Origin: Takakia lepidozioides
Lineage: Eukaryota > Plantae > Bryophyta
DNA length: 64,000 nt
NCBI GenBank assembly: GCA_030704615.1
Contig: CM060732.1
Coordinates: 45,074,001-45,138,000 of the forward strand
Direction of reading: 5' to 3'
The notes beneath the pieces were generated by a model. It had not been told where the DNA came from. It saw nothing but the letters and a program-made list of their open reading frames with translations, and did no database searches. Made by a program: the position numbers and the translations under genes. Positions 4,118 through 58,238 of this stretch are shown here, piece after piece. Position 1 is the first letter of the stretch, and every line of letters starts with the position of its first letter.

Positions 4118-4254
4118 TGTTAGAGGGCTGTCTAGGACTTAGACAGTTTTACGGGTTCTGTGGGGTACCCTTAATTTTGCGCAGACTTACGGATGGTAGA
4201 CTCAGACCAATACAGACCTTAGGGGTGACAGACACATGCCTTAGGGGTGGTAGA

Positions 4255-4560
4255 CAGGCTTACACAGTCAGTCACATCCTTACACAGCTTATCACAACCT
4301 AACACAGTTTGACACAGCCTTACACAGTTTGTCACAGCCTAATACAGTCTGACACAGCCTAACACAGTCTGACACAGCCTTACACAGTCTTATATAGCCT
4401 TACACAGCCTATTACAGTCTATCACAGTTTATCACAGCCCGACACAGCCTCACACAGCCTCACACAGCCAATCATAGCCGGCACAGTCACAGCCCGGCAC
4501 AGCTTCACACAGCCAGTTACAGCCCGTCACAGTTTGGTACAGCCGTCACAGCGTTCACAG
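4255..4560 (+). repeat. Degenerate minisatellite with a 9-10 bp unit (ACACAGCCT / ACACAGTCT)
   Basis: Directly visible tandem array near the 5' end of element B. Confidence 0.9.
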
Positions 4561-5778: not shown

Positions 5779-6289
5779 AGATATGAAAGACATGGGACAT
5801 GAGTGATGAAAGGGAAGCTAGACTCCACAGATATTCAGCAAAAAGAGAATCGGCCAACACCCCACACCACCTCCTTGTTCCTGCTTGCTCGCGCAGGCTT
5901 GGCCATCGCTGCCCTCGTCTGCGTCCGCCTTGCCTCTCTCCCTGGACGATGGCGAACATGAAGCCCCGTGAGAGCAAAGACCCGGAGTCAGCATAGTCGG
6001 GGAACGGCCTCGGGAACCCGTAGATAACCTGGGAACAGGTTGTAATGGCGAGAACGTTTGGGTGTTAAAAAAAATAAAAAAATAAAAAAATCTTTTGATC
6101 TAATTTAAAGGATTTAGAGCCTAATTGGTCATATCTTTGTCAAATGGACTCTGTTTGACCCAGTTTTTGGCGGGATAGTTGCAGAAAGGGGATATCTACC
6201 TATCTAGATCTGGTTTTTGTTTTTGGGACTCTGCTAAAAATCTATGGAATTTTTAAAGTGTGAGTGTGCTATGAAAGGTCCACAATTCT

Positions 6290-7096
6290 GTGTTCAGAAC
6301 TTGTTCTAGTCTATATGAGAGACAAATCTGTGGATGTCCTCTTTGTATGGCTGGGGGAAATGAGGACGTAATTGAAGGGCAGGTCTCGTCTCTTAGCCTG
6401 TGCACACAAGGGGACAAGATTTATGTTTCCCAAGGGACTCAGACTGATTTGAGTGGAGAACAGTTGGACGAGTTGATTGCATACTGGGAGTCAGGCACTA
6501 GCAGTAGACAACAGTCTGCTGTAGTTGGCGTTGAGGGCCTCAATATCGCTTTGGATAGTCAGAACTCTGTTGGAGCCAGCAGTTCTGCAGCTGTAGGTGA
6601 AATACCAAAGTGGGTGAAAGCTAGGCTTGGAACATAGCCAAAGACAGCCCCGGGAACCAAGGTGTTCAGCCACAAGGCCGTGGTGTACTGGAGCAGAGGA
6701 GCAGGAGCTGCACAAGTTTGTGCAATCAGACATGGTTGCAGCCGGACACACTCTGCACAAGGCAACCACGAGCGGGGGTTCATTAACAATGACATGTTTG
6801 TCCTGCGTGAAGGAGATGCAGTCATTCGCAATGAGGACACCCGCAACCGTCTCAAAGCTTTCGAGTTGAGAGACTATCAGACCCTACCCTTGTTTTCTTT
6901 AGTGTTTAGTGAGCGGGAGATAGAGAAGTATTGTTTTGTCTCTACCTGGCAGAAAGAGGAGGAGGGTTGGTTAGAGCGAGCTACTGTAGCTTGGGATAAG
7001 GTTAGTGGTAGGTTTCTGGACATAGATATACCTCCTACACCTTACCATCATGCAGAGCGAGGCACTTTGAGAGAAGTCTGGCAGTTGATAGCATAG
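6290..7096 (+). pseudogene. Accessory ORF of element B (about 268 codons) with one premature stop
   Basis: ORFs 6290..6637 and 6662..7096 are in the same frame and separated by a single TAG at 6635-6637, probably from CAG. There is an N-terminal Cys cluster (C...CGCPLC). Function unknown. Confidence 0.5.
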
Positions 7097-7616
7097 ATCA
7101 TGACTAGATCTTGCTTGGTCGGGCTTCTATTCTTCCCCTCCATCTCTGTATTATTTTCACTACCTTGTACTTGTAGTTGCCAAAGCCTCTCTTGGTGGAG
7201 GCCAGTCAGTCCGGGATTTTGGGCTGGGCTATTCTGCAGGATCAGCATTGCAGTTGGATTTTGGTGTGGGGGTGTTGATGTTTTGATTTCTTGTGTTTGG
7301 ATCCCCCCCAACACCTGCATGCTTGACTGTGCGCCATGTTGGTTTTGTGTGGGCGCTTTGCTTTCATAGGGATTAGGCCGGATTTGATCACCGGTCAATC
7401 CTAGAGTATGCTGTCGGTGGTGAGGCTGGAGTGATGACCAGCAAGACCACCAATGTTTCTTCTATGGTGAGGCTGGGTTGATGACCAGCCAACCATAGGA
7501 GTTCTTGCGGTGGATGCAGGTGCAGGTGCCCTGAGCCATTGGGATATGACCCTTAAACTGCAACAGGTGCCCACCCGTGTCACTATTAGATTAGTACTAG
7601 AGCCTTATAGTGTCAC

Positions 7617-9866
7617 GTGGAGGAGGTGCACATTGTGAGTGTCATCACGGAGTTACCCAAGGGTTTTGAGGGGAGTACGGCTACAGGTAGTAACAGTGAG
7701 AGTGGGTTCACAAGACGAGGTATTCGGTTCAGACCACCTTCACCGCCACCCTCAACTACTGAAGAGTCTGACACAGACCCGGAGGTTTCATCAACCAGTG
7801 TGCAGTTTTCTTCGCCATTGTTGTGGGACGACATGGAGGAGATGTATGGAGCTACCAAGGGGCCTTGTAGGTACTCTGGAGCTGTGGGCACAATCGAGCT
7901 GGATGACTTTATCCAGGAGTTCGACAGTTGGTGTGATTTGCAGCAGATGCGCAATCCACAGCTGTTCACCCCATTCATGGCGTGGAAGGGATTGTTCCAG
8001 CATTTGGAAGGCCCGCCTATGGACGATTACCACGAGTTCAGGCGAGGACATGAAGCAGAAATTGAAGAGTGGAGGATGTATTGGTCACCTGACTACGTCT
8101 CCATTACTCGGGGAACAACACGACCAGTAGCGACATCAACACCAATACCTCCCACGGCTAGCACTAGTAGTGGAACCAGTGGTGCCAGTACTTCTGCAGA
8201 AGGTGCTACTACTCATCCTCCCACGACTACAACATATGTGCCTAGATTCAGCCCGGTGGTGGAGTTCTTCCAGGAGTTGCGGAGGAACTACCAAGGTGTA
8301 CGGACTGAGAAGCTGCGGAGTTTGCAGGACTTCCAACGCAAACCCAGTGAGAGCCTGCGAGAGGCGTACACTCGTATGAGGCGCTTGATAAGTGTGACCC
8401 AAGGGGTTACTGAAGCTCAGGCAATCCAGTTTTGGTATGGAATTCTGGATAAGGAGCTCAAGAGAAGGGTGCGAGATGCAACCCTGTTACAAGCAGCCCA
8501 ACCCACATTAGCAGATGTGTTTTTGCTGGCTGAACGGATTGAGCTCAACATGGTGGAGGAGCGAGTTGTTACCATTGGATTTGGCAAGGACATGCCTGCA
8601 CGAGGCGCAGCTGCCAGCCCACAGGCACAAGGTACTGCCCAGCAGCGTGGTCAGGGGGGCAAGGTTTCCCAGCCCAAGTTCCATGGAGCTTATAGGGGAC
8701 CTCAGGTGCAGAAACCCGTGGCATCTTTTGCAGGCCAACAGCAACCAGGGGTGATATGTTGGACATGTGGAGGACCCCATGTCAAAAAAGATTGCCCAGA
8801 GAGTGGCAGAAGGCCGGCACAAGCACAGCCTGCACAGTTGCAGTGTGGGCATTGTGGCAAGTATGGGCATGGAGATGCCCAGTGTTATGACTTGCATCCT
8901 GAGTTGCGCCCAGGCCAGTTCCAAGGGAACAATGGTGGCCGGGGGCGAGGTGGACCAGCCCAGAGAGGATGAGGTGGTCGGGCACGAGGTGCAGGCCAAG
9001 GGCAAGCTCAACATGGCCAAGGACGCGGTGGTGAGGGTGTTGACCAAGGCATGGCCAACCGGCTTCAGCAGCTAGAGCAGAGGCTCGCTGCCATGGCTAT
9101 AGCTCAGGCGGTACCGGCTCCCAGGCGGGATGGTCCACCTCCTGCTCCTGAAGGAGGAGATATGGGACGCATGGGATTCATGTGTGGAGCAGCGCTACCA
9201 CTAGAGCAGGTGGAGTCTACTGCAGCCGTGACTCGAGGAGCATCACGAGTTCCTGAGCCACGAGGTGCAGAGGTGGAATGGGATCCACAGCGTGGGGAGG
9301 CAAGCCGTCAGGCGAGGCTTCCTCAGTCATTCACATTGGCGGAGACTGTGTCGACGCTATCCATGGCACCCAGTTCTCGCCCGACTGTTACCGAGGCGGA
9401 GGTTACTATACCATTGGGGAGAGCTACACGTGCAGCATTGACTCCTGCTGCCAAGGCTAGTGCGGCCGGTGTGTTATTGGGGGCAGCCACCTCTGTGTGT
9501 CAGGCCCCACTGTTCTCGGCAACAATGATTGCGACGCCAGGGGTGAGACCAGCTGCAGTGTTCAGACTAGCAGCAACACTCTGTGAGAGTGGGGAGGTCA
9601 CTTCATCTTCTACGGAGTTAGTGGAAGGTGTAGTGGCAGAAGGATCCTCGGATTTGAGGGTCAAGACTGCCACGGCTGCGCCATGGCAAGCTGCAGCTGC
9701 CAGGTTGACAGAGCTGCCAGCTAGGCCAGCCTTTGAGCGCACCATGGTGACACCTGGAGTTGTCTTGTTAGACAACCAGGGAGGCATTTTCACTTTGAGT
9801 GGACCGGCAGGCAAGAAGTACCGGCCACTGCGGGTCTTGTTGGACTCGGGAGCTCAGCCACTGATG
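7617..9866 (+). pseudogene. gag: Gag plus start of aspartic protease of element B
   Basis: ORFs 7617..8972 and 9051.. share one frame, split only by TGA at 8970-8972 inside a Gly/Arg run (GGA-TGA-GGT, likely CGA). It shows a retrotransposon gag-like FQRKPSESLREAYTRMRRL, zinc knuckles CWTCGGPHVKKDC and CGHCGKYGHGDAQC, and the protease active site LLDSGAQP. The sequence switches abruptly after QPLM. Confidence 0.9.
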
Positions 9867-11527
9867 GATCTCTTGACCCTTCAGTGCTCCCAAGTCCTTC
9901 AAACTGAAGGCAAAGCAATTCCTATAAGCCCTCAGGAACCGCCGTATACGTCGTCTCTCTCCTCCGGTGACAATGGGTCCAATGTCAGGCTCCCAATTGT
10001 CCTCCGTAACTGCAACCTTAAGTCCAGTGGGCTTAGAGGTAGAGGACGCATCCCGTGGTTGCTATGCTGCAACCTCTTGAGCAGTACTCCCTTCCTGCTC
10101 AGTCAATGACAAGTCATCATGCCCCATCATCTCATCATTGAGAACCTCCTCAATCCGAGAAGAATCCCCAACCTCATCCATCACAGCTGTCTTGGCTGCC
10201 AACTCCCTCTGGACCTCGAGCACCTCCCACGTGTGCCATGGATGTCTACACCCCGTGGTCCTCACCGGCTCGCCCCCACTCGCTGCCTGTACCGTCTCGG
10301 TAGGCAGAGAGACCGTCAAGGTAAGTGCACTCCGCACTCTACGTTGCTCAGCCATAGCCAAGCTGATAATCCAGGTCAAGCAATTGAGATCCATTGCTTG
10401 CCCCAACACTTGACGCAGTGATGCCTCAGAAAGAGAAGGCACCGCCGTGGTCCCAGTGGAAAACCCCATAGCCCGCTCTCGCTCGTCGGCATTAGGCTCC
10501 ACTAACTGCTGCAACTGAGCATCCCACAGGAGGCCAGGTCCACCATCCCGAAAAGCATGGGATCCTGGGAAGCTGAGCAGTGTAGGTAATGCTGCTCGTG
10601 GTTGACCCACCCTGTTGATCACTGCCAAAGGCGAACGGTCATCATGTCTCACACGTTGAGACTGCCTCCCTGTGTCCAAAATGCTGTTCACTATGAGGTG
10701 TGTTGGCCGCTCCACCCCATCAAATGCATGCTTGAGCAGTGCGGGTGGCATCAAGTTAGTCCACCATAGCCGTGGACGATGAGCCCGTGATCCCACTGCA
10801 GCTGCATCCAGCAGCACTGCTGACCCAAGCCACGACCGGACTTGATGCATACTGGCCATCACCCTGGCCCGAGAATCGCCCATCGGTGGCACATTCTCCA
10901 AGATGCATGCTGGCGATACAGCTTGATGAAGCTGCAAGTGGCGCAAAATCCGCACCATCTCCCAAAACAGACCCGTCCTCGAGTCTCGCAATCCATTGTC
11001 ATGCCCGGCTGATGAATGCCCTTGGCAGGGCCAACCTGCCACTACCAGATCAATGGAGCCAACCTGCTCCAAATCCAGGGTCTCCAACAACGAAATGTCT
11101 GTTGGCAAGGCTTGTTGGTATCCACGAACTGCAGACACTGGCAACAAAACAGGGTACTGCTGTACCAACTGAGCAACATGGCGCAGTGAGACGCGTCGTG
11201 CAGTCTCATCCCTCTCCACATACAGGTAACGCCTTACCCGTACACCTGCCTGTAGCACAGCAGCCAATCCGGTGCTGATCCCGCCAAACAAGTCCAGAAG
11301 GCAAATGCCTTCATCCGGATACTGCCACACAATAGGTGTGGTATTCAATGGTGACAACTGAGGTGGTCCGGGTGCAATACCCGCACTCTCCTCCTCTCCT
11401 GACGGTACAAAAGCCTCTACCCAGGCTTGTTGCACCCGTCGATCAGCAACCTGCTGCAAATCCTTGCTCGTACCCCACAATGGAGTGTGAGCAACCATGG
11501 CAGGCAACTCCGCCATACCATGCAAGG
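9864..11527 (-). CDS. DNMT3-like C5 DNA cytosine methyltransferase domain embedded in retrotransposon Pol (N-terminally truncated, in frame with the pre-RT region)
   Basis: Motifs occur in canonical order: I LLDLFGGISTG, II YVERD, III PTDI, IV DLVVAGWPCQGHS (catalytic Cys), VI ILENV, VIII RAHRPRLWWTN, IX ERERAMGF..GTT, X RQVLGQAMD. Beyond the TAG at 10062-10064 the frame continues as IGPIVTGGERRRIRRFLRAYRNCFAFSLKDLGALKGQEIH, a gypsy pre-RT signature. Confidence 0.92.
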
Positions 11528-11968
11528 TAACGGAACCCTTTACGCGTTCAGCAAAGAAAAACCTTTGCCACATATGCAGTCCTAGTGGTCATTCCAAGCT
11601 GGAATGTGAACATATTACACTAAACGAGGTTTACTAATAAGACGTATTTCTAAACCCTTCACCCTAAACGAGTTTGAGTAGGTGTCAGAATAGTTCCTAA
11701 AAGCTAATTTTGTAAAATAAAATGATCCTTGGAAGCCAGAGGAGGGCCTATGGGAGCATTCTGCAACGACCTCACAGAAATCGTGGCAAAAAATACTCCC
11801 CACCCAACCAATGGCCTCTTTCTCCACATGACTACGTGTCGTGAAATAATAAAATGCCACGCACACAGAAGTTGTGTGGAGAGGAAGTGAGGGGAGACTG
11901 AGCCTCCCTTGGCTTATATCCCCCCCCCCCCCCTCATTCCTCGGGCCACGCGCAGGGCAAACCTTCTA

Positions 11969-12911
11969 GAAGCGACCGCCCACTTGGCGGTCGCTCCATT
12001 TTCTGAAAATAAAATAAATAAGCGACTGCCAACATTGGCGGTCGCTCCATTTTCTGAAAATAAAATAAATAAGCGACTGCCAACATTGGCGGTCGCTCCA
12101 TTTTCCGAAAATAAAATAAATAAGCGACTGCCAACATTGGCGGTCGCTACATTTACAGTGACATTAAGAATTAAAGTGACCGCCAATAATGGTGGTCGCT
12201 TCATTTCAAAAGAATTTGACAAAAAATTGTCATTTATAAACTAAAATAATTACAGCGACCGCCAGTAATGGCGGTCGCTCCATTTCCAACAAATTTTTAA
12301 TAAAAGCGACCGCCACTAATAGCGGTCGCTGCATTAAAAAAAAAAAACAATTGCGGCGACCGCCCGTAATGGCGGTCGCTCCATTTTCCTCCAGAAAACG
12401 AAAAATAATCCCCCCCCCCCAAATTCCTCGCTCCACGTGCAGGGCAGACCTCGTAGAAGCGATCGACACCTTCGCGGTCGCTCCATTTAAGAAACAAAAT
12501 AAAAGCGACTGCTAGTAATGGCGGACGCTGCATTTTAAAAAATAACAATTACAGCGACCGCCAGGCGGTCGCTGCATTTTCTTTAAAAAAAAACTTCAAG
12601 CAACCGCCAGTAATGGAAGTGAGGGGAGAATGACTTGGAGCTTATATCCCCCGCCTCATTCCTTGCTCCACACGCAAGACAGACCTCGTAGAAGCGAACG
12701 CCACCTTGGATTTTCAGAAAAAATAGAAATTAAAGCGACCGTCAGTAATGGCGGTCGCTCAATTTACATAAAAAATATTACGAGCGACCGCCAGTTCTGG
12801 CGGTTGTTGAATTTACGAAAAAATAAAAGACGACTGCTATTACATCGCGTTCGCTGCATTTACAAAGAATAAAAAACAAATGCGACTGCTAGTGATGCCG
12901 GTCGCTACATT
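11969..12911. repeat. Array of about 17 GC-rich palindromic units (AGCGACCGCCA-N4-TGGCGGTCGCTnCATT) with A-rich variable spacers, period about 50 bp
   Basis: Counted by eye. The first units are nearly identical 51-bp repeats and later ones diverge. A higher-order block (GAAGTGAGGGGAGA...TTATATCCCCC...AGACCTCGTAG) recurs near 11884, 12408 (partial) and 12616. Confidence 0.9.
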
Positions 12912-13434
12912 AAAATAAAAATGAATGCAGAGTTGGAAGCATTGGCACAATTGTTCTTTATTCCACAAGCAAATCATCAAACACAAACATGAGCAAGTGA
13001 CGGTGCCTTTGGCCGACATTTTGGCTGGTATACACATGGGCAACATCTTTTATTTCGCAACACATACACAACAGCAATACAAATACTCATAGTGACAATG
13101 ATCACACTGGTATTACTTCACTACAGAAATGTAAACATGTCCACTAAAATGTGCTGATGCATGCCTATAGCTGTTTTGCTTCAATTCCTTCTAGTGCTTT
13201 GACGACGGGACGAAGAAGATCCTAATCCTAATGCTCCGATGGGCTGAAAATCCGAGTCACCCTCAACTTCACCACCATTGCCATGATCAGTGCTGGAATC
13301 GTCCTCCCTATCCAACCTCATATGTTCAGGCATTTGAATCTGCAAGTGACCTCGAATCACATTTAGTTCTCTTCGAGGTCGACTCTCACTCCGGTCTTGA
13401 ATACCATCCACGGTATCTGGCCTGTTTGTGGGCA

Positions 13435-14145
13435 GTGCGAATCCCTTCTTTGTCCTTAGGTACATCAAACAGCATGACTAGTGCCATGATCTTGTCCAGA
13501 TCAGACTGCATGCCTTTAGCAGAGATCACATGCCCCAATTATTTAAGTTCTCCGAGGCATAAGGCACACTTGGAAGGTTTCAGCTTAAGACGTAAAGCCC
13601 TCAGCCTATCAAACACCTTCTGAAGATGCATTAAATCCATGGCTAGAAAAAGATTTAGAAAAAACGTTGATGTCGTCAAAATTGTGAACCAAGGCACACT
13701 CCCACTTGAGGTTGCCAAGGACGATGTCCATGAGCCGTTGAAAAGTGCTACTGGCATTGCAAAGGTCGAACGGCATGGTCAAACTGGAACAAGCTTTTTT
13801 TGCAGGTGAAGGTAGTTTTCTCTGTGGCTGCCTTGGTCAAGGGCACATGCCAAAAACCACTTGCCAAATCCATGGATGAGAAAATAATGGAGCCATTCAT
13901 TTGGTCAAGCATATCATCAATCCGTGGCAGGGGTAAGTATCCTTCTTGGTTAAGGTATTCAAATGTCAAAAATCCAGAGAACCTGGTGGTGTGGTCTTTC
14001 TTTTCCACCAAGACAACAAGACTGGCCCAAGGGGAAATGGAGAGGCGAATGACACCAGCGTCTAACATACGTGCAACCTCTTTTTTGACAATTTTCTCTC
14101 CTTAGGACTTTCTCGGTACGAATGTTGCTTCATAGGACTTCCGTC
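13435..14145 (-). mobile_element. Degraded Ty3/gypsy reverse transcriptase fragment
   Basis: MLDAGVIRLSISPWASLVVLVEKKD, PLPRIDDMLD, FSSMDLASGFWHV, LKLKPSKC and LGHVISAKG, with frameshifts and stops. Confidence 0.92.
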
Positions 14146-14147
14146 AA

Positions 14148-14545
14148 TCACAAAACATAGTACATCCTTGCGTTGCAAACAGAAATGGAGATCGGGACAG
14201 ACTTACAAAATTTGCACAACATTGTGGAATTTCGTGGAGCAGATTGATCAGGCTGAGAGGTATTCACTGTTGCACCTTCCCATTGAGTTTCATTTGCGCA
14301 TTTGTTCCTCTGAACATGTTGGTGCTTCAGGTTTGGACAATGTAGATGTCCCACACCCAAATCGTCTAAACTTCAATCCCATGTTGTTCTTGACGTTTGT
14401 AGTTTTTGTCTTGCACCAATGATGACCATCATTCTTTTTGTCCATGCCCTGCATAAGGCCTGCAAGTCCTCTGAAGCTTGTTGTGGGAGAAAGCTCGAAC
14501 ATGACATAGCCGTCAAATTGGAGTGGCAAATTTTGAACTCATTGC
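14148..14545 (-). mobile_element. Degraded Cys/His-rich fragment, possibly a DNA-transposon DNA-binding region
   Basis: Frameshifted peptide LPLQFDGYVMFEL...MDKKNDGHHWCKT...GHLHCPN...NETQWEG...CKFCK...CNARMYY inside the TE nest. The family assignment is tentative. Confidence 0.35.
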
Positions 14546-14564
14546 ACACTGAAGAGCAAATTCA

Positions 14565-15446
14565 TGTTCAGCTACAGTAACCTCATGCTTAGGCAATAAA
14601 ACGCATCTACAAGTATGTACGAGGTACAATCGATTTTGCCTTGTTGCATCGGCGAGGGGAGGATGACGATTTGTTCGGATTTACGGAGGTCAATTGGGCA
14701 AGCTGCAATGCTTATGACATAAAATCGACAACAGGATATGTGTTTATGCTCGGGAGCACTCCGATCACATGGAACAACAAGAAGCAGCCTACGGTGGCGC
14801 TTTCATCGACTGAAGCAGAGTACATGGCTCTGACCGATGGCACCAAGGAGGCTGTATGGCTGCGGAGGCTACTAAGGGAAATCGGAATCCAAGATTCAAA
14901 ACAGTCCACGACCATTTACGGTGACAACCCGGAAGCCTCAACTTGGCGCACAACGCAATTAATCACGAACGGACAAAACACATTTAGGTAAAGCACCATT
15001 TTGTAAGAGAGAAGATCAATTCAATGGAGGTCGAATTGAATCACGTGCCTTCAGCGGGAACTGGCTGACATATTGACATAATCCTTCTTAAAACTGCATT
15101 CGAAAAACTTAGAACAATTCCTTCTCCATGAAGCCAATTATCAATAAGAATGCTCTGAATACCCATATTCAGATGAGGGGGGGTATTGTTACATCATATT
15201 CATTTGGGGTATTGTAATTGACCCACCAATTAGATTAGTTACATGCTCATGATAATGCATGACCCCCCACTAAGACAAATAGATCTACTGAAGTACGGAG
15301 TTACATAGCAGTAGTATTCATAGTGCATACCGCTTTAGATAGTGGGGCCAAAAGCAGTAGAAGCAAAAGTAGGGCCACTGTATATATTGGGGAGTTACCT
15401 GAATGAAAATATCTGCTTCTGTTCCTCCCATTATGCGATCTCTACA
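14565..15446 (+). mobile_element. Ty1/copia 3' remnant: RNase H, PPT and 3' LTR (about 15187-15446)
   Basis: KSTTGYVFMLG.TPITW..KKQPTVALSSTEAEYMAL, IYGDN, RTKHI..HHFVRE and LADILT. PPT GATGAGGGGGGG at about 15172, followed by a TG...CA segment. Confidence 0.92.
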
Positions 15447-15524
15447 GCAATCCAGTCAGCTCCAGTGCCTCCTAAGAAGCTGCTAGAATGCTTGGGAGAG
15501 AGAGAGTGAGCCGGAGATTAGTGC

Positions 15525-18500
15525 TCAACGTGCTCTTGCAATCTCACGGCCAACTTTGTACATACAGGGATCCCTGTTTGATTTGTCCTGCAAAGCAACG
15601 CGAGGGCGGGTGGCTACTGACACCCCACAGCTACTGCTTGCTGAAAGTGCTTTGGCACTTGGATCTGGTCTCATGGCTGCAGGTCTCGCAGATGTCATTG
15701 GCCTTCGGATGCCGGGAATGGAGCCTGGCAAGATAGATGTTATCGTGTGATAATGTAAGGCTGTTTCGCGCAACTTCCGTTCTGCAGCTTTTCTGAGCAC
15801 TGATTGTGTTGAATGCGGGAACTTCTCCACATTTCTGCATTGCCAGTGCTCCTGGTCTCATGAGTACTAGAGACACCATAATTATCTTTGTCCAACTAAG
15901 TCTTTCTCCTCTCTAAAACTCTCAGCCACGACCATGATATTCATGACGATTGGCAGGTCGTGGAGTGTGGACAGACATCCTACCTTTTCTTAACTGAAAC
16001 AGCCCTACGATGCAAAGACTCTAACAGTAGAGAAGCAGCTGTACCTCTTTTCAACTTCAAGTTTTCTCTCCAACGTTTTAACGACATGCTCCAAACTTCG
16101 CAGCCAGCGTGGTGTTCTCTGGATTACCGGAGTGCCTGATGGGTTGGAGCATACAAGCTGCAAAACTTTGATGGCCTTTGCAAATACCTCCTCCCTGCTT
16201 CTGCATTCAACAATCTTTATTGTATAAACAACTAAGAGAGTAGAAGTTCAAGAACTTTATAACGCACCTGGAAAGTCCAGACAGCTTATCCGCATGACGA
16301 AAAAAGCAGACCGCTAGGAAACCAGGCCTAGGCACAGACGATCGACCAGCTCGTGAAGGTAAGCTGTCAAGCATTTTAAAGAGAGAAGACTTGGTACCTG
16401 AACATTAGAAGCTGTTCAACGATGATGTTGATAGAGCCTGATGCCTCCAAGATGCACAGAGCCAGATCAGAAAAGCGAGCAAGGTTTGCTAGAATAGAGA
16501 GCGCGTGCTTCACCACCTGCTCATGTGGCGGGCTGCGGTTGGTGGTCTGAATCAGCTGCAGGAGCTTGGTAATGGCACCCCCTTCTGCCAATCGTTGGCA
16601 GCACTGCTTGGAGTGTTCAGTTGCTACATCTGCATTCCACACAATTCATACAACAACATCACAAGCAAGACGAATCTGCACCCAACCTTTTTCTCCAACC
16701 GTAGGTGGGAGTGCCATAAATCTACTGCCTGTCCAGACTCTCATCAGGACTAAGTTTCTCGTTCCCACAACAACCTATATGCTACCTGGGAATTTGCGGC
16801 AGACCCCCTTCACTACTGATTTAAGAAGAGAACTCATTCTATCATCTATGTAGAGGCACAATCATGTAATCGTAATGGACAGTGATGAGATTTCAAGCTA
16901 TACCGATAGTAGCACAAGTGTTAAGGATGCCGCTGACAGTCTTTTGGTTCAATAACTGTGCCAGGGCCTCAGTAAGTCTATTGCACAACCGCTGGCTGTT
17001 CTCTACAGTTGCAGCTGTACTATGGATGCGACCGCGCAGCTGCTGCATTTGCGCATTTATGTAGCCCTGGCCTCTCCTCTGCTCATATCCCCTCCAGTGT
17101 GCCTGGTTCGCATATCATCTTGTTAGGATTTCTGCATTGAGGTGACGTTCTTTGTGACAGACTTGCGAATGCATGTAGAAATATAGTGGCACTAGGACTT
17201 ACCTGGATGATGTACACACAGCGTATGGCATGTGCAAATGACTTACGTGCTTGCCAGCCACGAATATGCCGCTGGAGTACGATGGCAAACCTGCGTAGCC
17301 TCAAGAAAGTTATTCTGTGTATCTGTGCTTTAGCCCACTTTGATAATCGCTGACCTGCCTCCAACTCGACTGCATTGTACACCCTCTTTGAGAAGCTTGC
17401 ATCTAGTACAGAATTCACGGTCTCTTTATCCTCACATTGCTCTTCTGTCTCTTCTTTGGCAACTAGAGCAAGTGGTCTCTTTGTGGTTTCGTATTCGCTC
17501 CAGTGGGTTTGGATGGTACAGGCTGCAGAGGCTCGGAAAGACTGGGTCATTATCATAGCAGATTTTGAGGCCTCTTGTTTAGCAAGCCAGCCCCGGAATA
17601 AAGCCTGGATTGCGCTAGCAGCCTCATGTTGCCTGTGAAGCCTTTGTCTGACAATTATACCCCTTACGAACGCCTGCAGTTTCGTAATGGCAGATCTGCA
17701 TTTCTTATATTTCTCCCTTTGAATGTGACTACGGTACCAACTCTGGATACAGAGTACTGATCTGATTTCCCGGGCCAGAGACTGCCTTACACAGTAACCA
17801 CGCCACCTGGCTTGTATATGTATCACTGCTGCCCTGCAAACCATTACCCTTTGTCTCACCCGTTTACCGCGAGCAATTGCTTGGAACCTCGCAATTGAAT
17901 TTCTGTACTCATTGTAAGCTCTTCTGTGGATAAAACCCCGACAACAACTCTGAATGACAATTGCAGCTGCTCTCCACTTGCTTAGTATCAGTCGCACATG
18001 ATGCCCCCGCCAGCTTGCTTGGATCCTAAGAACAGAGTTACGGAGTCGGACAAACATTTTCCAAGCCAAAGCTCCTCGCCAATGTTGCTGGATCTTCTGC
18101 GCAGCCCTTCGTTGTAGTAAGAAATGCTTGCGCAGTTGGCAGGCTCTCCACCATCCCTGCAGTGTTCTGACATGAACAAGTGTAGATTGGAACATTCTCC
18201 TTTGCACCCACCCTCGATAACGAGCTTGGATGAACATGGCTGCATTGTCCTCTTGCCTTCTGTGATTGTGAAGGGCCTGCTCGAAAGGATTCATGGGGAT
18301 CAAATCTATGTTTGATTTTGTGCCAAAGAGGGCTGAGCAAAGATGGGCCACGTACATAATGACATTGCGCTCACAGGTACGTGAGTCACCATCCACCAAG
18401 TCAGCCAGCTCGAGCACCTGCTATGTTGAACAAAATAATGTTGGTGTCTGTAGTATGCAATTCATGTGGAACATAGTTCTAGCATGATCATTGCATTATC

Positions 18501-21500
18501 GAGCTCAATGAAAGGGCTGAATCACATTGCAGAAAAATTGCTAGGCACTAAACTGCAGGCAAAAAGTAGGACAACTTTGAGTGACACTTTCAAGTCTCAT
18601 TCAGTGACTGTCTAATGGTGGCCATGAATGCAACGTCTGGATAAAACCTGAGAATGCCAAACAACTCAATGACACTGGAAAAATAGAACAAGAAAGCACA
18701 AATCATGGTGAAGGATTGTTGACCTCTGGGATGCGTCCTAACATCTTGGCAACCTCTTGCAGCATCTGGAAGTTGTGGGCAATTGCTTCTCTGTCTGCTG
18801 GAGTCATGGTCTCCCTCATTTGGAGAGACTGCCCATCCCAGCGCCCATGCTGTCCACTATTTTGGACTTCCTGAAGACACAATGTAAACACTTGATTCTT
18901 GGTGGAAAGGGTCTTGGGAATAACTTGCATATCTCACGTCTCCCCCTCCCCAGAAGTTCCTGACGTACTTGCAAAAATGACAAGTCATTGCCTCTTACTG
19001 GTTGCATGGTTTATGATCTGGAGTAGGTGAGAAAATATACCACAAGTACAACCTACTTTACAGATCACATGGCCCTAAAGAAACCTACCATGTAGTTTGA
19101 TACAGGCATTCTTGTGGGAAGAATCGCATGTCGGGGAAGATACAGAGGTAGGTAGAAGTTGACAATGTAACAAAGGGCTTGTGCATCTGCAAATGAAGAA
19201 TCGAAGTTCTCCACCATCACCCCACCATAACTCGAGCAGACTGCCTGCACTCGATCACATCTGCAGCGGCTTTAAAATGGGAAGCTATCACAGATAGCCA
19301 TTGCAGTTATATCTGGCAGAAACATTATCTCAAGAATGGGCAAAGTGCACACATAATTCCAATACACAAAATATCTGAAGAATGAACTGTGAGGAAGCAC
19401 ATTGTGTTCTTGCACAACTGTTTAAATTTTACCAAAGCCCAATCAGAGCACTGTGGCTGGGAATCCATGAGCTTCTGGCATCCAAACAGTTGTTGACTTG
19501 AGCAGCTCTACGCAAATAAATTAATGAAGTGTCCAAGGGAGATCAGAAGTCAGAACAGGGGACATGCCTGAGCCCAAGCCAACAGTAGGTCTAGCACAGC
19601 TTCTCCTCCTCCTATCTCCAAGCAAGGACCCTGCAAACAGCCGAAGTGCAACCTTGAGATGACCATCTTGTAGTGTAATGGTGTCTCATTATGTGTCCTG
19701 AGCGACATGAGGAAATGTTGAGTGCGGCTTGGAAATAGAAAATATGCAGGGTGATAGGGGCTTTGGCAAGTAAGTAACTTCTCTGAAGATAGTTGATCTA
19801 GGGAGGAAAAGACCCTATATCATTCAAACTGACCAAAGAAAGAGAGGGGTAACTTTCCCTAAATGATTGCAGAAGAACATCTCCACAGGCATGTCAATGA
19901 CAATGTCGTAGTATAAAGGCTTTCAGAAGATACCAGAGCAAGACTGCCTGGGGAGCCTTGAACTTGGACTATTTCTTGCCACAGCTTTGATGGGTTTACC
20001 AACCGAGGTATCTGCATGCATGTGTCCCGTATTCAGTGCAGTATGGGCCCCTTATAATGGATCCGTCAATCCATTCATCTCTCTCTCTTTCTTTGAGCTC
20101 CACTTTCCTTCTATCAAGCTCTTTGAGCTTTGCACAGATGTTATAAAGTATCATTTCATTTCTTTCTCTTTCTAGAGACTTCTCCTCAATGCATCTAATT
20201 GAAGAACAAAAATGCAAGGGAGGCCAAAGTGGTCAATGAGCTCATGTGTCTCTCTGTCTCTCTCTTTCATATACAGACACCTGCAAATGGAGGATGATAC
20301 TCCAGAGCAGCGGCAACGTCTTGTCACGACACCCATCCACAATATGATCTGCAGTGATGGAGGCCCCCTTTTCATCCTGCAGAGGCACCCCAGCATGTGC
20401 CAGACTTTGCAAGGCTACCTTGCAGTTGTGCACACGTGTTTTCCTGACATGACATGGCCACTTCATCTTCTGCATTCACAGACAACTCACATGCAATGAT
20501 GGCAAAAGTTAAATTCATGAGAATACGGTGGCATGGAACTACTCTTTGTGTGCAGCTCTCTTCTGTCTTCTCTCCACGTATGTGCATGTCTCCATTATAT
20601 GTAGCTGCCTCAATAGCTCCCTATCCCATCTTCTGCATCTGCCTACCTCCTCTATTCATCCTTGGCAATTCATCAGAATTCTGTCAATGTAGCAAAGACT
20701 TCCTGTTCCCTGGATTGAGAGGAGCGGACCCAAATTGCAAACATGCAGAAGGTCAGCGAGATGCCAAGAGGGCAGAGGTATAGGAAAGCACCGCAAGAAC
20801 TGATAGATCCTCTGACATGAGCTGCGCCAGACGGCACAAACGGATACCATCCTGAAGGTCCTCAACCAAACTGTTCACTTCAAAGTTGTACTCACATAGA
20901 GGTGTCTGTGGCCCACCCACACATGCCCTTTGTTTTGTCAAAATCTCTCAACATCGTCATTGGAATCTCATTCCATGTCACCAGTTTAACAATGGGGGTA
21001 AAGGATTTCGAACTGTATCCAAGCAGTTGGTGATTTGGCGACCTATTCATGGACTCATCCATCAGCAGTTCTAACTACTGACATCTCACCTGAATATGAG
21101 AGACATGGTATCCCAGTTTCCGAAGGTGTCCAATCAGATCCCCTTCTCCTTGCATGGCATCGGAGAGAAAATCTGTCATTCAGATTTGAAATACAGATCA
21201 AAACAACCTTGTAACTCTTTGCAGCACATTTAACCAGTTTACTAAGGGACCAAGTTCCACAAAATTTCTTGTTCTATGAGCTGGGCAGTTGCAAATTTTG
21301 TGAGGTAAAAATTGAACGAAAATCCACCTTCTTGTATGTGGAGACTCCATACTTGAGGCTTTCTAGAAGCGTGTTCACTAGTTCATCATACAGAAAACCA
21401 GCCAAAGGGCTGACTGGATAGTTTGTATTCAGTTTGGACCATACCATACAGATAGAGTACCCTCAAAAGTCATTAATCAACATTATTCAGTGCAAGAGGT

Positions 21501-24114
21501 TTAGTCAACAGTTTCAGATGAATGGTGAAGAAGACAAATAACCTTCCAGGGCCTGCCGGCTGGATTTTACTGAGGTGTTTGGCCGGAAAAGCAATGGGGA
21601 ACCCCCATCCAAACCATCAATACCATGGGAACTGTGCAAAGCTGTTTGACTCTTGATCTTGTCAAGGACAAGTACAAGCAGAAAGAATCTTTTCAGAATA
21701 ACTTTCCCCAATGCCTCTCCATACCCATTGCCATACAAACCTCCAATAGACCTACACACAATCAGCGTCAGTGATAAGATCCTTTCACTGGAAAATCATA
21801 GCAAACGATCATCTTCCATTCACCATCGATCTTTCAAAGTTTGAATTTAGGAGATAACAGAAAGTAAAGAGACAGGATATTGCCTTGGTTATATCAAAAA
21901 CAATTTTGCTTAGCTGAGCTGAAACTAATTTTAGTTATCTTAATCATTGTGTAGTGCAATGAGCATTAAAATCTCACCAGCACTCAACTCTGAACAGATA
22001 GCATCCTGCGAAGCATGAACTTACCTGTTGGAGGCATAGAACTTGGCAAGGTGAACGTCTGCCAGGAAGTTCCGTTCTAGTAGGACTTCCAACAGGGCAT
22101 ACTCAGAACTCTGGCTTCCCTTGCTTACCCCTCCACAGTGATCACTTGTGGGCAGTTTATCCTTGCCAAGAAGGGCAGCGCAACCAAGAACTACAACCAA
22201 TCCGAGACGGAGCCATGAAGGATTGTAGTTCAACAGAACCTCCATGGCCTTTTGACGCAATGCGACATCTGTCAGAATTGCACAGTTGGCCTTCATCCTC
22301 ACTCTGCCATCATCTATGTGCTGCACATGCATTGGACCAACAGAGCATTTTACTGCTCCACAATGGGACAAGGGGTATGATTCACAGCGAGATACACCGC
22401 ATTATTGGCAAATTTCTTTTGACTCATGACATAAGGCAGTTTGCGATGGTTGGCTGCAGATGCTGGCATCTTGCATGATCATGAATGCCACAAAGTTCAA
22501 AGTATACCAACAGCAATCACTACACTAATGTAACGATTGGTAATGCCCCACCTTGGCCAGCTGCATCATGGTTGAAACAATTTCATCACTCTTGGAGGGC
22601 TCCAAATGTACATTGAGGCGACCTTGCAGCTCTGATGCACTGCAGATATGGCTTATATGGTTCTCTGGAGTGTGCCCTAAAATGATGCTGTCCTGGTTAT
22701 CTTTCTGCCTTCTGCAAGTGCTGATGCTGGCCAGATGACCTTTGGCCGATGTTCCCCTTTTCTTGTGTGTGTGTGGGTGGGGTGTTTGACTACCACCTTC
22801 ATGTGTAGAAGCCATATCAGCACATGCACGAAATTGATTTCATGGCAATGGACTAAGAATCTATCAACAGGCTAAAGCAAATATATAACGTTCATTGAAA
22901 TCAGTTGCAAAACAAGTACATTCTGTCAGGCCTGAAGTCAATGTAGAGGTTCCAGTTACAGCAGATGCTCTCTCAAAGACATGAATCGCAAGGCCACCTC
23001 AAACTCAAAATCCAGGAACAGCCCTAACACTTTTCTGATTTATCAAACGCACAAATGAACTGTCACCGTATTATTCTCTATTAGCAAGCCAACAGTATGT
23101 CTGTCCCTTGACTGTTTGACATATAGCTACCCAAGTTAACTTTAGGACGTTGTATGGTGTTCTATGCTCTGTCTGAGTGGGTGCCTTCGACATTGTTTCC
23201 AGGAGGTCTGTAGGTATCAGCAAAATGTTTGAGGGGGATACATGCGTTTTATGGTCTTCTCTTGAAAGATAGAGAAGGCTTCCCTTGCGTGACAGGTGAT
23301 TCGTACCTGGAAATGCTTTGATTGCACACCTGCCACGCGAGGTGCTCTCATGTTCCACTGAAAGTGACGCAAAAGCCAAACTGGTGCTGACAGATGGATC
23401 CCCGTGCGACCCAGTAAGTGACCTAGTGCTAGCCTCCACGGTTGCGGCATCCATGCCCACGGTCAAGATTCCTGAGTTGGGAGACATGGGTTGCTTTAGC
23501 AAGTGGTTTAACCAAGCAGCGTAAGCCCTCTCTTGCCGGTCCATCCAAAGCTCCCACTTGGCCTTTGCTATACGTGAAGCTTGTAATTCCTGGCTCTCCA
23601 ACAAACGCAATTGTAGGGATGCCTGCAATTTCATCTTCCTCCCCGACATGGGTGGGCGTGCCCTCCGTTGGGAGGCAGGTGTCTGAAAGCCACCTCCCAT
23701 AACACCACCCATAGAGCCAGGCACTCTCAATGGGGTTCTCTCGCCATCAATGGGGGACAGTCCACCTCTGCTGATGCGTTTGGGAGTGGAAAAGAACTGG
23801 GCAAGTCCGAAACCAGGTTTGCCAATTGTACTCATCGGAGACTCTGAACCAAGTGAAAATCCCCTGCTGCTGAAGAGGGATTCCGCCTGGAAGCCTCGAC
23901 TTAGCAATTGTTGCTTTATCTTTCCCCGATCATTGCCAGATTTACAGCTAACAGGCTCGAGTCTGAGAAGCGATCTTGTCTTGGTACTAGCTCTTCCATC
24001 AGGGGTAGTTATTACAAGCGGGCTCTGAAAGCCGTCGTTGAAGATTACTCTACCTGGCTCACTGGTCTCTACTCCCTTCCTCGGTGTCGCACAATTCTCC
24101 GTCTCGTCTTCCAT
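15525..24114 (-). CDS. ASPM: Abnormal spindle-like microcephaly-associated protein homolog (CH domains plus IQ repeats), multi-exon
   Basis: Exons include WMDRQERAYAAWLN, YNPSWLRLGL, ILKRFFLLVLVLD..K...HGIDGLDGGSPLLF, VEDLQDGIRLCRL, IVDGCRDKTLPLLW, VENFDSSFADAQALCYIV, many IQxxxRG motifs in 17083..18417, and a C-terminal ARM-like RSPPHEQVVKHALSIL. GT-AG sites are visible. ATG at 24114, last exon 15834-15525. Confidence 0.93.
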
Positions 24115-24777
24115 TGCTTTCAGGCCCGTAATCAACTTACTCTCTCCCTAAATTCCCGACGCGCACCTCAATGCGAGCACCATCCATGAAGTCAATCAGG
24201 ACCCAGCAAAAACCGAAGGCCGAAATCAAGTAATGCACACAATGCGTAATGGATTTGGAAGGATTTGAATCAGGGGCGTGGGAAGAAACGCTGGAGAATT
24301 CAGACAATCGGGTTGCGGAATCTAAATCTATTGGCGGTCAAGTGGAATACATCGTCGCACATCATACTATCAAAACCTCACCCTCCCGGGCAATCCAGCA
24401 AGCAGGAAGTTCAAAATAGCAAATGAGTGCACAACGCAGCACGGCAGACACTACATCTGAGCCCTAAATCCTGGCAAGCTCCAAGTGTGAAGAAATCAGA
24501 AGCCGCCATCTGCACTAAGTTATGGTAGAGTGCAGAGTGCAGAGTGTGAGATGGTCCCGTCCGGACGTTCGGACAGTCCCGTTTGGAATTCAAACAGTGG
24601 CGGCACTACAGTTTCATCCATCAACTGCATCCGCCCATCATTCGTCCTTATCTCTTCCTCATCCATCCGTCACCACCTGTCGTGCTCCTATACGCGGCAG
24701 GAAATAAAAAACAAACACGGCCGCTTTTGGTCTGATGGGTGTGCATGAGAGGTCATGAGTTCAATCCAGGGTTTCAA

Positions 24778-29233: not shown

Positions 29234-30571
29234 CTAGCAAGATTGACGTATATTGCAAGCAACAGCCTGAGCCCAATGCCGCAGTCTAGTCTTCACCTGT
29301 GATGGATGGTCTCCTGCAACAAGACAGCCATCGAAGGTTCAGCATCGAGAGTGACGAGAACAGCTTTCATGCAACAAGCCAGGTCACTACATTCACTGCG
29401 TTCCCTCGGCAAAGACTAAAAGCACAACAATTCTCTCTCCATAGCCTTCCATAAGCTCTTCAAGTTTCCCTTCATTGTAAGAGGCCCAAGCCCGAGGGCT
29501 ACTACTCTCGCAGACAACGCGTCAAGTTCAGTTCGAAGCGAGCTTGCATGTGAGAGGTTCAACATAAACACGAGATACTTTGAGAGAGGAGGTCAATAGC
29601 TTACCGGGACTGGCAATCCTCCAGGACTCCCTGGGAGAGCTCTGTGAGCTGCTCCCATTAGCAGATCGATCAATCATGACACTACTATCCAAAGTTGACA
29701 CTGGCGACGACCTGCCAGGAACATCATTGAATTGTCGGGCAATGGCATAGCACAATTCTAGGGCTGGCAGTGTGCTGCACAGCTCCGGATCCGCCTCGTC
29801 GCTGAAACGAAAGCCCAAATCTATACACCCTCTCAGCTCATCCAAATCCTCGTCAGTGAGGCTCCTAGTTCTTGAGTGAGTCCTCACAGTTTGGCGCGGC
29901 CAAGTTCGGTCACCGCAATCAGACACACTTCTTCCAATGGCCCTTTGCTTCCTGTCATTCCTTTCATTCAGCTCATCTAACAGTATCCTGTCTCTCCTCC
30001 TTTCCCACGCTTCTTCAATTGCCTCCTCTCTACATTCGTTGCTAGAAAGAGATCTCTGCTTCTGCAGCTTCCGATGTAGTACCCTCGCTCCTTCTTCATC
30101 CAGGATATCCTTCCTCGATATATCCACTGCAGGTGATGAGACCTCAGCTCGATCCCAAGCCGTCGAACTATCAGGTTTCCAGTTTATAGGAGCAGAATAG
30201 ACTCTAGAGAGGCTCGGCCCAAGACCGTTCGGTGCATCTCCTGAAGAGGTTGCCACATTACCTGCCATCCGTGACTTCGTGTACCCCATGCTAGTCTCTC
30301 CATGCCTCTGGCGGTAAGAACCAAAACAAGCAAACAGACCCGTCTCATCAAACCTTCTCCCTACTTCAAGTGGCACCTCGTCGGCCTCCTCTGCAAGCGA
30401 ACAAACCTCAGAAAGCTCCCTCTCCTCCCTTGCATCGTCCTGATACGCATCTTCCGCTTCCGACAGCGTTCGTGGCACCCGAGAAGGCGACAACATACAC
30501 CCCGGGGACAAACTTTCTCTGATTATCTCAAGCCCCCGCAGCACCGGAGAATTACTCCCCTTCTCCCTCAT
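29234..30571 (-). CDS. DUF1685 family plant protein, 2 exons
   Basis: RSLTDEDLDELRGCIDLGF...LCSTLPALEL...WRIASPG spliced (GTAAGC at about 29604, AG at about 29314) to DHPSQVKTRLRHWAQAVAC. Confidence 0.9.
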
Positions 30572-37342: not shown

Positions 37343-38477
37343 TAGGGAATTCCAAAAAGGCCTTGATGTGAAATGCATCGCAATTCACTTGATCACCCCC
37401 CTAAAAGTGTGCAATTCAATTGAACTAACCCTAATTTGCAATTCAATTGAATTGTCGGCACACGAGTCAATTGAATTGCGAATCGGCAATTCAATTGAAT
37501 TGTAATCTATAATTTTTAACTTATTTATATATATAATATATAATATATATGTACATATATATATTCAAATTATATTTATACACATATAAGAGTATAAGCT
37601 AAAAATACATGTTGCCCGTCTATTCTTGCTGGCCCTCTTTCTTGTGCCCTTGAGGAAATTGTGGAGTTGTGAAGCCACCCTCACCCTCAGCGAGAAAGGG
37701 AGAGCCAGAGACGGAGAGAGATCGGATTCACTGGCAAAAGAAATATGGCTGGCTCCAAAAAAAACAGACAAAATCAAACCTGACAATTGATGAAAGGCTT
37801 CCCCTGCATCACCATGTAGTCCCCTAACACTAGTATCTGGCCCAGGACAAAGAAAACAAAACATATGTTCATCTTGAGAAGTATCAAAAATTTCGATATC
37901 CTTACAAAGGTATCATGTTGAAGTTGGGATGTGTTCTCTATATAAGTTTAATATATCAAACTCTTACACGTTGATACTCTTACATTGGTATCATGTTTGG
38001 TATATGTACATAGCCATATAGTGGCACCAACATCCACAAAGAGAGACAATCCCGCTTTTACAAGCGCTTGGTGACTTCCCTTCTCTCTCTCTCCCTCTCT
38101 CGCTCTCCCTTAGGCTTATCTTGGGCTCAAGCCTTACCACGGGCAAAGGATTGACAGACGGACAGCAAGAAAAGACGGGCAACATGTATTTTTAGCTTAT
38201 ACTTGTGTATGTATATATATATATATATACATACATACATCATATACAGAAATAAGTTAAAAATTATAGATTACAATTCAATTGAATTGTAGTCAGCAAT
38301 TCAATTGAATTGCCAATTCGCAATTCAATTGAATCGTGTGCCGACAATTCAATTGAATTGCAAATTAGGGTTAGTTCAATTGAGTTGCCCTTGCAATTCA
38401 ATTGAATTGCGCACTTTTAGGGGGTGATCAAGTGAATTGCAATGCATTTCACATCAAGGCCTTTTTGGAATTCCCTA
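37343..38477. mobile_element. Non-autonomous foldback DNA transposon with TIRs of about 300 bp
   Basis: TAGGGAATTCCAAAAAGGCCTTGATGTG at the left end and its reverse complement at the right end. GGAGGGA is duplicated at 37336-37342 and 38478-38484. The TIRs contain repeated palindromes CAATTCAATTGAATTG. Confidence 0.9.
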
Positions 38478-57771: not shown

Positions 57772-58238
57772 TTGGGAGAGAGAGAGAGAGCCGGAGATTA
57801 GTGCTCAACATGCTCTTGTACGTGCTCACAGCCAACCTTGCACATACAGGGATCCCTGTTTGATTTGTCCTGCAAAGCAACGTGAGGCCGGGTGGCTACT
57901 GACACCCCACAGCTGCTGCTCGCTGAAAGTGCTTTGGCACTTGGAGCTGGTCTCATGCAGTTCTCGCCGATGCCATTGGCCTTCGGATGCTGGGAATGGA
58001 GCCTGGCAAGAGATGTTATAGTGTGATAATGTAAGGCTGTTTCGCGCAACTTCCGTTCTGCAGCTTTTCTGAGCACTGATTTTGTTGAATGCGGGAACTT
58101 CTCCACATTTCTGGATTGCCAGTGCTCCTGGTCTCATGAGTACTAGAGACACCATAATTATCTTTCTCCAACTAAGTCTTCCTCCTCTCTAAAACTCAGA
58201 GCCACAACCATGATATTCATGGCAATTGGCAGGTCGTG
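57772..58238 (-). pseudogene. Duplicated ASPM terminal exon with flanking intron and 3' UTR (copy of 15492-15962)
   Basis: About 470 bp of high nucleotide similarity in the same orientation. ORFs 15525..15830 and 57798..58106 are near-identical in part. Confidence 0.92.

Follow-up and report, generated by a model that had tools for sequence, protein, structure and literature searches.

A 64,000 nt stretch of the Takakia lepidozioides genome (CM060732.1; the window, whose positions are used throughout) contains part of a Ty3/Gypsy-type retrotransposon that carries a DNMT3-like cytosine methyltransferase. The family to which this copy belongs probably has a first open reading frame (ORF1) encoding Gag, protease (PR) and the methyltransferase domain (hereafter DNMT), then a conserved and likely leaky stop codon, and behind it a second frame (ORF2) encoding reverse transcriptase (RT), RNase H (RH), integrase (IN) and a PHD finger, with the window holding an inverted and deleted copy. 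A first-pass annotation had placed the DNMT inside the Pol polyprotein of such an element. That it is borne by a retrotransposon stands, and the conserved stop places it in ORF1.

The DNMT lies in a minus-strand frame running uninterrupted from 11588 to 10062 (508 codons stop to stop; PF00145 at E 5.8e-14), as had been annotated. Its motifs stand in linear order, namely I (DLFGG, 11294-11280), IV (GWPCQG, 11036-11019), VI (LENV, 10901-10890), VIII (HRPRLWWTN, 10781-10755), IX (ERERAMGF, 10484-10461) and an X-like LGQAMD (10406-10389), numbered by the usual scheme for C5 methyltransferases. The catalytic PC, ENV and RxR are all present and the circular permutation of plant DRM is lacking, in agreement with the canonical order first reported. 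A profile built from 13 homologs found DNMT3A first in PDB (E 2.6e-15), followed by DNMT3C and DNMT3B, with HhaI at E 3e-5; plant DRM, which is permuted, differs further in scoring far lower (E 4.5e-6). An AlphaFold model of the domain (predicted local distance difference test score 71, predicted template modelling score 0.77) matched DNMT3A/B/C in all 39 rows listed (best E 7e-14, ~20% identity), and the proposed DNMT3 affinity thus held by profile and by fold. Identity was 65% to the Marchantia protein P0001 and 44% to the Klebsormidium retroelement protein KFL_009030040. Judged from sequence and model, the domain is DNMT3-like, intronless and non-permuted with intact motifs, and is a predicted methyltransferase. 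The first-pass annotation had also called for a comparison of nonsynonymous with synonymous substitution (dN/dS), which shows, at the level of aligned sequences, purifying selection on the DNMT at dN/dS ~0.1 between sublineages: six unsaturated locus pairs gave 0.12, 0.11, 0.095, 0.094, 0.087 and 0.24, five of them within 0.09-0.12. Five pairs of decayed siblings gave 0.43-0.97, and substitutions in pairs that include the window have reached or nearly reached saturation (0.08 vs locus L003).

The stop behind the DNMT is the TAG at 10064-10062 on the minus strand, within TAG CAA CCA (10056..10064), a context assigned from the sequence, its relatives and the consensus to the leaky CAR-YYA type (R, purine; Y, pyrimidine) of tobacco mosaic virus (TMV). 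The frame then reads IGPIVTGGERRRIRRFLRAYRNCFAFSLKDLG, a peptide that could be aligned to the pre-RT segments of P0008 from Marchantia (58%) and P0023 from Sphagnum (56%), as expected from the first reading of this frame as Gypsy sequence preceding RT; Pfam returned no match on the 65-codon piece. No letter from 10055 to 10066 varies by at least 8% in four runs from up to four studies, in a complete variant table with 17 variable places in 301 bases. Relatives were taken from a metagenome scan that confirmed 327 of 600 stretches, the best 80 of the 327 serving as family loci, with siblings and duplicates among them (e.g., L052/L061, L035-L037). The stop survey covered 54 rows with both DNMT and pre-RT sequence (53 loci and the window). 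Seven form a separate subfamily ~40% identical to the window, five lacking the stop and two decayed. The remaining 47 comprise 40 with a stop followed by CAR-YY, five with a stop and TAA CCC at the same place, and two that are frameshifted. Contexts among the 40 are TAG CAA CCC (25), TAA CAA CCC (8), TAG CAG TTA (2), and singly TAG CAA TCA, TAG CAA CCA (the window), TAA CAA CCA, TAG CAA CTC and TAG CAA CCT. At the equivalent place in L053, which represents a fourth lineage, the sequence is also TAG CAA CCA. The full UAG CAR-YYA match combined with an open frame occurs in the window, L044, L045, L049 and L053. As background, 855 premature stops inside domains were followed by CARYY six times and by CARYYA never. 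The DNMTs of about four lineages are 46-67% identical and the peptides flanking the stop differ among them; the stop signal has therefore been kept in about four lineages. Annotated proteins of Marchantia (P0001, P0002, P0006, P0010) and Calypogeia (P0172, P0243) end 76-80 residues past the DNMT, as read from protein ends only. Decay as the origin of the TAG was rejected on the lack of variants reaching 8% and on conservation with CAR-YY in 40 of 47 rows, and these alignments indicate a conserved family feature. The DNMT therefore belongs to ORF1 with Gag and protease, joining RT only in a likely readthrough product.

Several observations weigh against a conserved, leaky stop that matters to the element. 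The 40 of 47 rows stand for about four independent lineages, many loci being sibling or duplicate assemblies, and nine of the 40 have TAA in place of TAG. In the most numerous metagenome family the stop is followed by CAA CCC, one base off CAR-YYA, with an in-frame ATG right behind. A 12-base stretch free of variants is not rare in itself and tells no more than that other copies share the TAG. Constraint is weak over the 21 codons past the stop and the 100 before it (dN/dS 0.28-0.54). Most copies are dead, only 9 of 50 full-length DNMT hits being free of stops. Loci L071, L075 and L077-L079 and the algal-type proteins P0025 and P0035 keep the DNMT without a stop, and the stop is therefore not needed for DNMT use. 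Lastly, Candida Tca2 has a similar in-frame stop that is bypassed by an internal promoter (PMC2194720; here and below, papers are cited for the parts consulted).

The fullest view of what follows the stop comes from L045, where a 1360-codon ORF1 with protease and DNA_methylase matches comes before TAG CAG TTA, after which the frame continues as a 1047-codon ORF2 holding RVT_1, RNase H, H2C2, rve and PHD domains; L049 has the same ORF2 behind TAG CAA TCA. A downstream stimulatory stem was sought and rejected, with no stable structure behind the stop in seven sequences (z -0.1 to -1.6). UAG CAR YYA supports readthrough in plants without downstream structure (PMC13517186), and the CAR-YYA consensus is the TMV readthrough signal (PMC2194720, PMC13517186). 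Quite likely, then, most ribosomes would terminate at the TAG and release Gag-PR-DNMT3 as the bulk product, with occasional readthrough adding RT-RH-IN-PHD as a minor extension. Retroelements require ~20 Gag per Pol (PMC2194720), and the position of this switch would therefore place both protease and methyltransferase among the abundant products. Enzyme made at the Gag level would be packaged with Gag in the particle and freed by the protease to methylate new complementary DNA (cDNA) before integration, so that the insertion would arrive marked like host heterochromatin; we give this sequence of events an even chance. De Mendoza et al. 2018 (PMC5890265) had already put forward cDNA methylation for the DIRS elements of dinoflagellates. 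More tentatively, and with somewhat less than even confidence, we suggest that the land-plant Gypsy-DNMT3 clade moved the switch from between gag and pol to a leaky UAG-CAR-YYA behind the DNMT, with particles loaded at capsid levels, pre-methylated cDNA, very high copy number in the host and split-repeat integration, and that it may supply liverworts, Marchantia included, with de novo methylation from a mobile source.

The methyltransferase might instead act mainly outside the particle, on genomic copies, target chromatin or host DNA, either limiting the element by silencing itself or conditioning chromatin, with the PHD finger steering integration. This possibility, which is compatible with the proposed readthrough, we hold to be unlikely on balance. 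Some enzyme would stay free if it were made in bulk with Gag, and several roles are listed by de Mendoza et al., who report, in the parts consulted, no Gypsy DNMT tested for cDNA methylation (PMC5890265). Both arms of the window copy are as depleted in CpG as the window (observed/expected 0.48 and 0.55, with 0.49 for the whole window). Relatives with the DNMT inside Pol, between RNase H and integrase (P0028 and others), point by contrast to a role in the replication complex. Fusion to Gag is also the usual route into the particle, which weighs against action outside it.

The open reading frame listing gives two long frames on opposite strands in the interval 7617..11527. The first-pass annotation had the DNMT frame abutting an ORF with gag, zinc knuckles and protease, and said nothing of opposite strands. 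That ORF is present, but it lies on the plus strand and the two arms converge at 9866, so a single collinear ORF in the window was rejected. The plus arm begins with a high-copy 5' leader at 6228..7832, recognized in run X1 by a rise in summed contig depth from ~65,000 (6014-6227) to 280,000-970,000; its 5' boundary may lie at ~5850, and it shows no match at the DNA level to leaders of the family loci. A 152-codon ORF in this leader (6638-7096, plus strand), possibly an extra ORF of the DNMT family, had no Pfam match, no match in the loci and no usable Atlas match. Gag, two CCHC zinc knuckles (8757-8795 and 8844-8885, read from the sequence), a linker and the N-terminal half of the protease follow at 7833..9866 (plus strand), 51% identical to residues 1-645 of P0001. 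This frame starts at the methionine at 7833 and ends three codons past the protease DSG motif, the active-site sequence LLDSGAQ (9837..9857, plus strand) being identical in P0001, P0003 and P0023; its Retrotrans_gag match (E 0.00098) is below the Pfam cut-off. A premature stop at 8970-8972 is private to the window copy, since 615,638 of 621,894 depth units in X1 (99%) lack it.

The minus arm holds the first 65 codons of ORF2 (9866..10061), a pre-RT segment without methionine in frame with the DNMT ORF and 56-59% identical to its counterparts in P0008 and P0023, and the 3' part of ORF1 (10065..11516), consisting of a linker remnant, the C5 methyltransferase domain (~11306-10347) and a 94-codon tail. 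Residues 806-1243 of P0001 map to 11516-10221 on the minus strand at 65% identity, and residues 646-805 (~160 codons) have no match in the window. The head-on junction of the two arms at 9866, with one shared base, was placed from loose contig ends and tblastn limits; such ends lie behind the plus arm in four of four runs and before the minus arm in three of four, and GC skew changes sign near 10 kb. At a second breakpoint (11521..11524; loose ends at 11524 in X1 and 11521 in X5), the inverted arm meets unrelated lower-copy DNA and depth drops from ~590,000 to ~11,000. The loose ends indicate that other copies continue past both breaks. Neither RT, RNase H nor integrase of the DNMT element was found in the window, and no terminal repeat of this copy could be mapped within it. 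A degenerate RT at ~13400-14100 (minus strand) was considered for the DNMT element and rejected; because it lies upstream of the DNMT as the latter is read and shares only ~25-45% identity with the RTs of the family, it is assigned to a different Gypsy-type element, with frameshifts. By its layout the window copy is inverted and deleted, lacking half of the protease, RT, RNase H, integrase and the 3' repeats, and would be unable to move by itself.

This stretch is represented in public runs, in eight of ten rows listed and from five studies. X1 yielded 45,669 contig records, whose summed depth reaches 0.28-1.18 million across 6228-11577 vs 6,000-20,000 beyond; summed contig depth is not a copy number, and the contrast is taken as the sign of an abundant repeat. 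The DNMT element is an abundant repeat in its host. An assembler could have joined two copies of such a repeat, making the convergent layout a chimera, and no piece bridges 9866 with 31 bases on each side among the 32 of 3153 listed. A single-copy junction, however, would be hidden among thousands of records, and rearranged copies do exist, since X1 includes copy-specific joints, of which one links opposite strands. The arms are moreover non-overlapping parts of one family, separated by a 160-codon gap, with a second clean break at 11521-11524. We consider a chimera quite unlikely.

With the family and its stop as described, and the DNMT still made at the Gag level, RT-RH-IN-PHD might be translated from a spliced transcript, from an internal promoter or by reinitiation. 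Tca2 is a precedent for the internal promoter. Ogre elements have an intron between protease and RT, and NCBI gene models (P0004, P0008, P0009, P0023) join DNMT to RT; these models differ in the position of the join, as ab initio predictions do. Methionines occur near the stop in some relatives (ATG two codons behind it in the main metagenome family, codon 5 in L044, codon 14 in L049), but no AUG is conserved, with none in the 65 codons of the window and the first at codon 117 in L045. ORF2 codons 22-116 of L045, all upstream of that methionine, are under selection (dN/dS 0.07-0.08 vs L044 and L049), which argues against reinitiation. A single frame is retained across one stop, and a contig of 2173 bases from X8, a run presumed to be RNA, crosses the stop ungapped and extends beyond 9866. 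Nothing would be expected to preserve the CAR-YY context in the absence of readthrough. Such routes to ORF2 are thus very doubtful, and readthrough remains the preferred explanation. It is barely credible that the DNMT is a host DNMT3 gene, a retrocopy or a domesticated gene beside a gag fragment by chance: its frame is open for 508 codons with in-frame ATGs at 11573 and 11516 and could be expressed from flanking DNA, but a host origin is refuted by its high copy number, the gag-protease fusions seen in Marchantia, Sphagnum and numerous loci, its 44% identity to the Klebsormidium retroelement protein vs ~20% to animal DNMT3 structures, and loose ends showing that other copies continue at both breaks. 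The outcomes that would have undone the first-pass annotation did not occur, as copy number is high, the domains are collinear elsewhere and the readthrough peptide aligns.

The proposal of a land-plant family is upheld by relatives in four genera, and by sequence the element belongs to a Ty3/Gypsy-type family in liverworts and peat mosses (Marchantia, Riccia, Calypogeia, Sphagnum). The 47 longer homologs include, by name, 15 from Marchantia polymorpha and one each from Sphagnum fallax, Klebsormidium nitens and Haematococcus. Among 120 of 240 near-length matches listed are Calypogeia fissa (4), Sphagnum troendelagicum (2), M. polymorpha (2), M. paleacea (1) and Riccia sorocarpa (1). No named vascular plant appears in the longer-homolog list or among the near-length matches listed, each search having scored ~8000 candidates, and of 40 pattern matches in viral contigs none was confirmed. 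Eighteen of the 80 loci carry gag, protease, DNMT, RT, RNase H and integrase collinearly along a single strand, in line with the ancestral Gag-PR-DNMT-RT-RH-IN order first suggested; 13 of these 18 have a C-terminal PHD finger. The protease is opposite to the DNMT in none of the 80.

FastTree analysis of the DNMT groups the window with Marchantia, Calypogeia and Sphagnum-type elements (support 100). A larger clade (98-99) adds the L044/L045/L049 group, leaving K. nitens and the L071/L075 subfamily outside. These trees are unrooted and were built from 64 of 105 rows, then from 30, hand-picked for diversity and with host DNMT3 left out; K. nitens was below the length filter in the 64-row tree. 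An RT tree of 27 rows recovers the same groups. Of the affinities that DNMT and RT trees had been expected to resolve, that to bryophyte elements is recovered, and K. nitens falls only in a clade neighbouring that of the window, in unrooted trees without host DNMT3. A second subfamily (L070-L080), ~40% identical to the window DNMT, runs from DNMT into RT in a single frame uninterrupted by a stop, and has the same split repeats. In proteins P0027-P0031, P0036, P0038, P0041 and P0042 the DNMT follows RT, and in P0028 it lies between RNase H and integrase. By these arrangements, the same DNMT domain appears to occupy two positions among related elements, between protease and RT or after RT.

Two ordinary long terminal repeats (LTRs), as originally assumed, were rejected, since no full-length locus has one repeat pair at both ends. 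Full-length relatives carry split repeats in the layout A - ORFs - polypurine tract - B-A-B, complete in L052 (6048-15251), L061, L075 (5633-14957) and L078 (159-8728) and partial in L002, L040, L047 and L066. In L052, A lies at 6048-6384 and 14801-15137, and B at 14682-14796 and 15137-15251. Outer ends are TG...CA, and a 4-bp target duplication flanks L052/L061 (same site) and L075, with none seen in L078. All four complete elements have a G-rich tract before the first B. The inner B/A junction repeats both end motifs with two bases between, like joined ends. The integrase signature consists of rve and H2C2 (a DDE integrase), and no tyrosine recombinase match was obtained in the scanned ORFs of L045 and L049. 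Matches to an initiator-Met primer-binding motif have three mismatches each and lie 240-450 bases before gag, far from A. The window has one such likeness, equally of three mismatches and unconvincing, at 7592-7603 (plus strand), 241 bases before gag.

Other repeats in the window include an array at 11920-12920 of ~50-base units with a GCGAC...GGTCGC palindrome and A-rich spacers, present in 12 copies in family D2, which may be a transposon end; it is CpG-rich (observed/expected 1.17 vs 0.49 for the window). A tandem array of 10-base units (ACAG...) lies at 4234-4558, and nested inverted repeats with internal CAATTCAATTGAATTG units, resembling a miniature inverted-repeat transposable element or a foldback element, at 37343-38477. 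A 202-base inverted repeat pair spans 615-1436, and a dispersed direct repeat of ~400 bases (15543-15962 and 57825-58238; 94-96% identity) recurs 42 kb apart. Exons of host genes encode an IQ-repeat protein (17083-24147, minus), a DUF1685 protein (29528-30598, minus), a ferric-reductase-like protein (55996-56925, plus) and Gar1/Naf1 (59877-62740, minus). The best matches of the DUF1685 exon, among 120 of 152 listed, are from Sphagnum (41%), Adiantum (39%), Diphasiastrum and Selaginella, with seed plants lower, which makes a land plant without seeds the likely host.

Why a transposon should carry an enzyme that normally silences transposons has been an open question since 2018, its known carriers being algae that are hard to work with. 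The presence of the family in Marchantia polymorpha (15 annotated proteins), where methylation mutants exist, makes the question testable. The stop behind the DNMT predicts a demand for many more copies of the enzyme than of RT or integrase. A gene annotated as a DNA methyltransferase in a liverwort or Sphagnum genome may in fact be a transposon ORF.

Our searches found no paper on a land-plant Gypsy-DNMT3 element or on readthrough behind a DNMT, with most subscription literature lying outside them. Marchantia and Sphagnum are not mentioned in the portions consulted of the text and searched supplementary files of de Mendoza et al. 2018 (PMC5890265). Retrotransposon DNMT3s of streptophytes are mentioned, with no land-plant elements named in the parts consulted, in PMC12344493 and bioRxiv 10.64898/2026.05.21.726589, whose supplements may include some. 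The consulted parts of PMC6453930, bioRxiv 10.1101/363937, PMC11982613, PMC10952607 and PMC9940879 hold nothing on such a family, and the plant LTR survey PMC6317226 nowhere contains the words methyltransferase, PHD or Marchantia.

Among retrotransposons with a cytosine methyltransferase, SymbioDIRS-Dnmt3, SymbioLINE-Dnmt and the EpiLTRs resemble the present family in that respect but are other element classes and independent captures. The dinoflagellate SymbioDIRS-Dnmt3 enzyme methylates CG de novo (PMC5890265), and EpiLTR DNMTs are sister to DNMT4 and stand alongside an adenine methylase and a chromodomain (bioRxiv 10.64898/2026.05.21.726589). Next to the host DNMT3 of mosses and animals (PMC6453930), the window domain has a catalytic fold and canonical motif order like those of DNMT3A/B/C, but it has no introns or companion domains and lies inside a Gag-protease ORF. 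Chlamydomonas Gypsy-7a_cRei and REM1 also have a PHD finger in a Gypsy polyprotein, but no methyltransferase among the domains listed in the consulted part of the source (PMC9940879), and are set apart by description. DIRS and Ngaro elements use a tyrosine recombinase and make no target duplication, in contrast to the DDE integrase and 4-bp duplications of this family.

The stop itself resembles TMV type I readthrough, a single in-frame stop followed by CAR-YYA with no need for downstream structure. In Tca2 and murine leukemia virus the stop lies between gag and pol, and in SIRE1, according to the consulted part of a citing paper, between pol and env, whereas here it lies between DNMT and RT, behind the protease. 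The closest system is KnitGypsy-Dnmt3 of Klebsormidium nitens, which has Gypsy domains, DIRS-like repeats and purifying selection (PMC5890265). Shared with it are an intronless, non-permuted Dnmt3-like domain in a Gypsy polyprotein and the DIRS-like repeat layout, and KFL_009030040 has the same PR-DNMT-RT-RH-IN order. The host is an alga there and land plants here, and the window clade is separate in both DNMT and RT trees. In the K. nitens protein, annotated as partial, DNMT runs into RT without a stop, an arrangement found in the L071/L075 subfamily and algal-type proteins and absent from the window clade. What this clade adds to the known Gypsy-Dnmt3 elements, and our main new result, is the conserved stop in a leaky context behind the DNMT.

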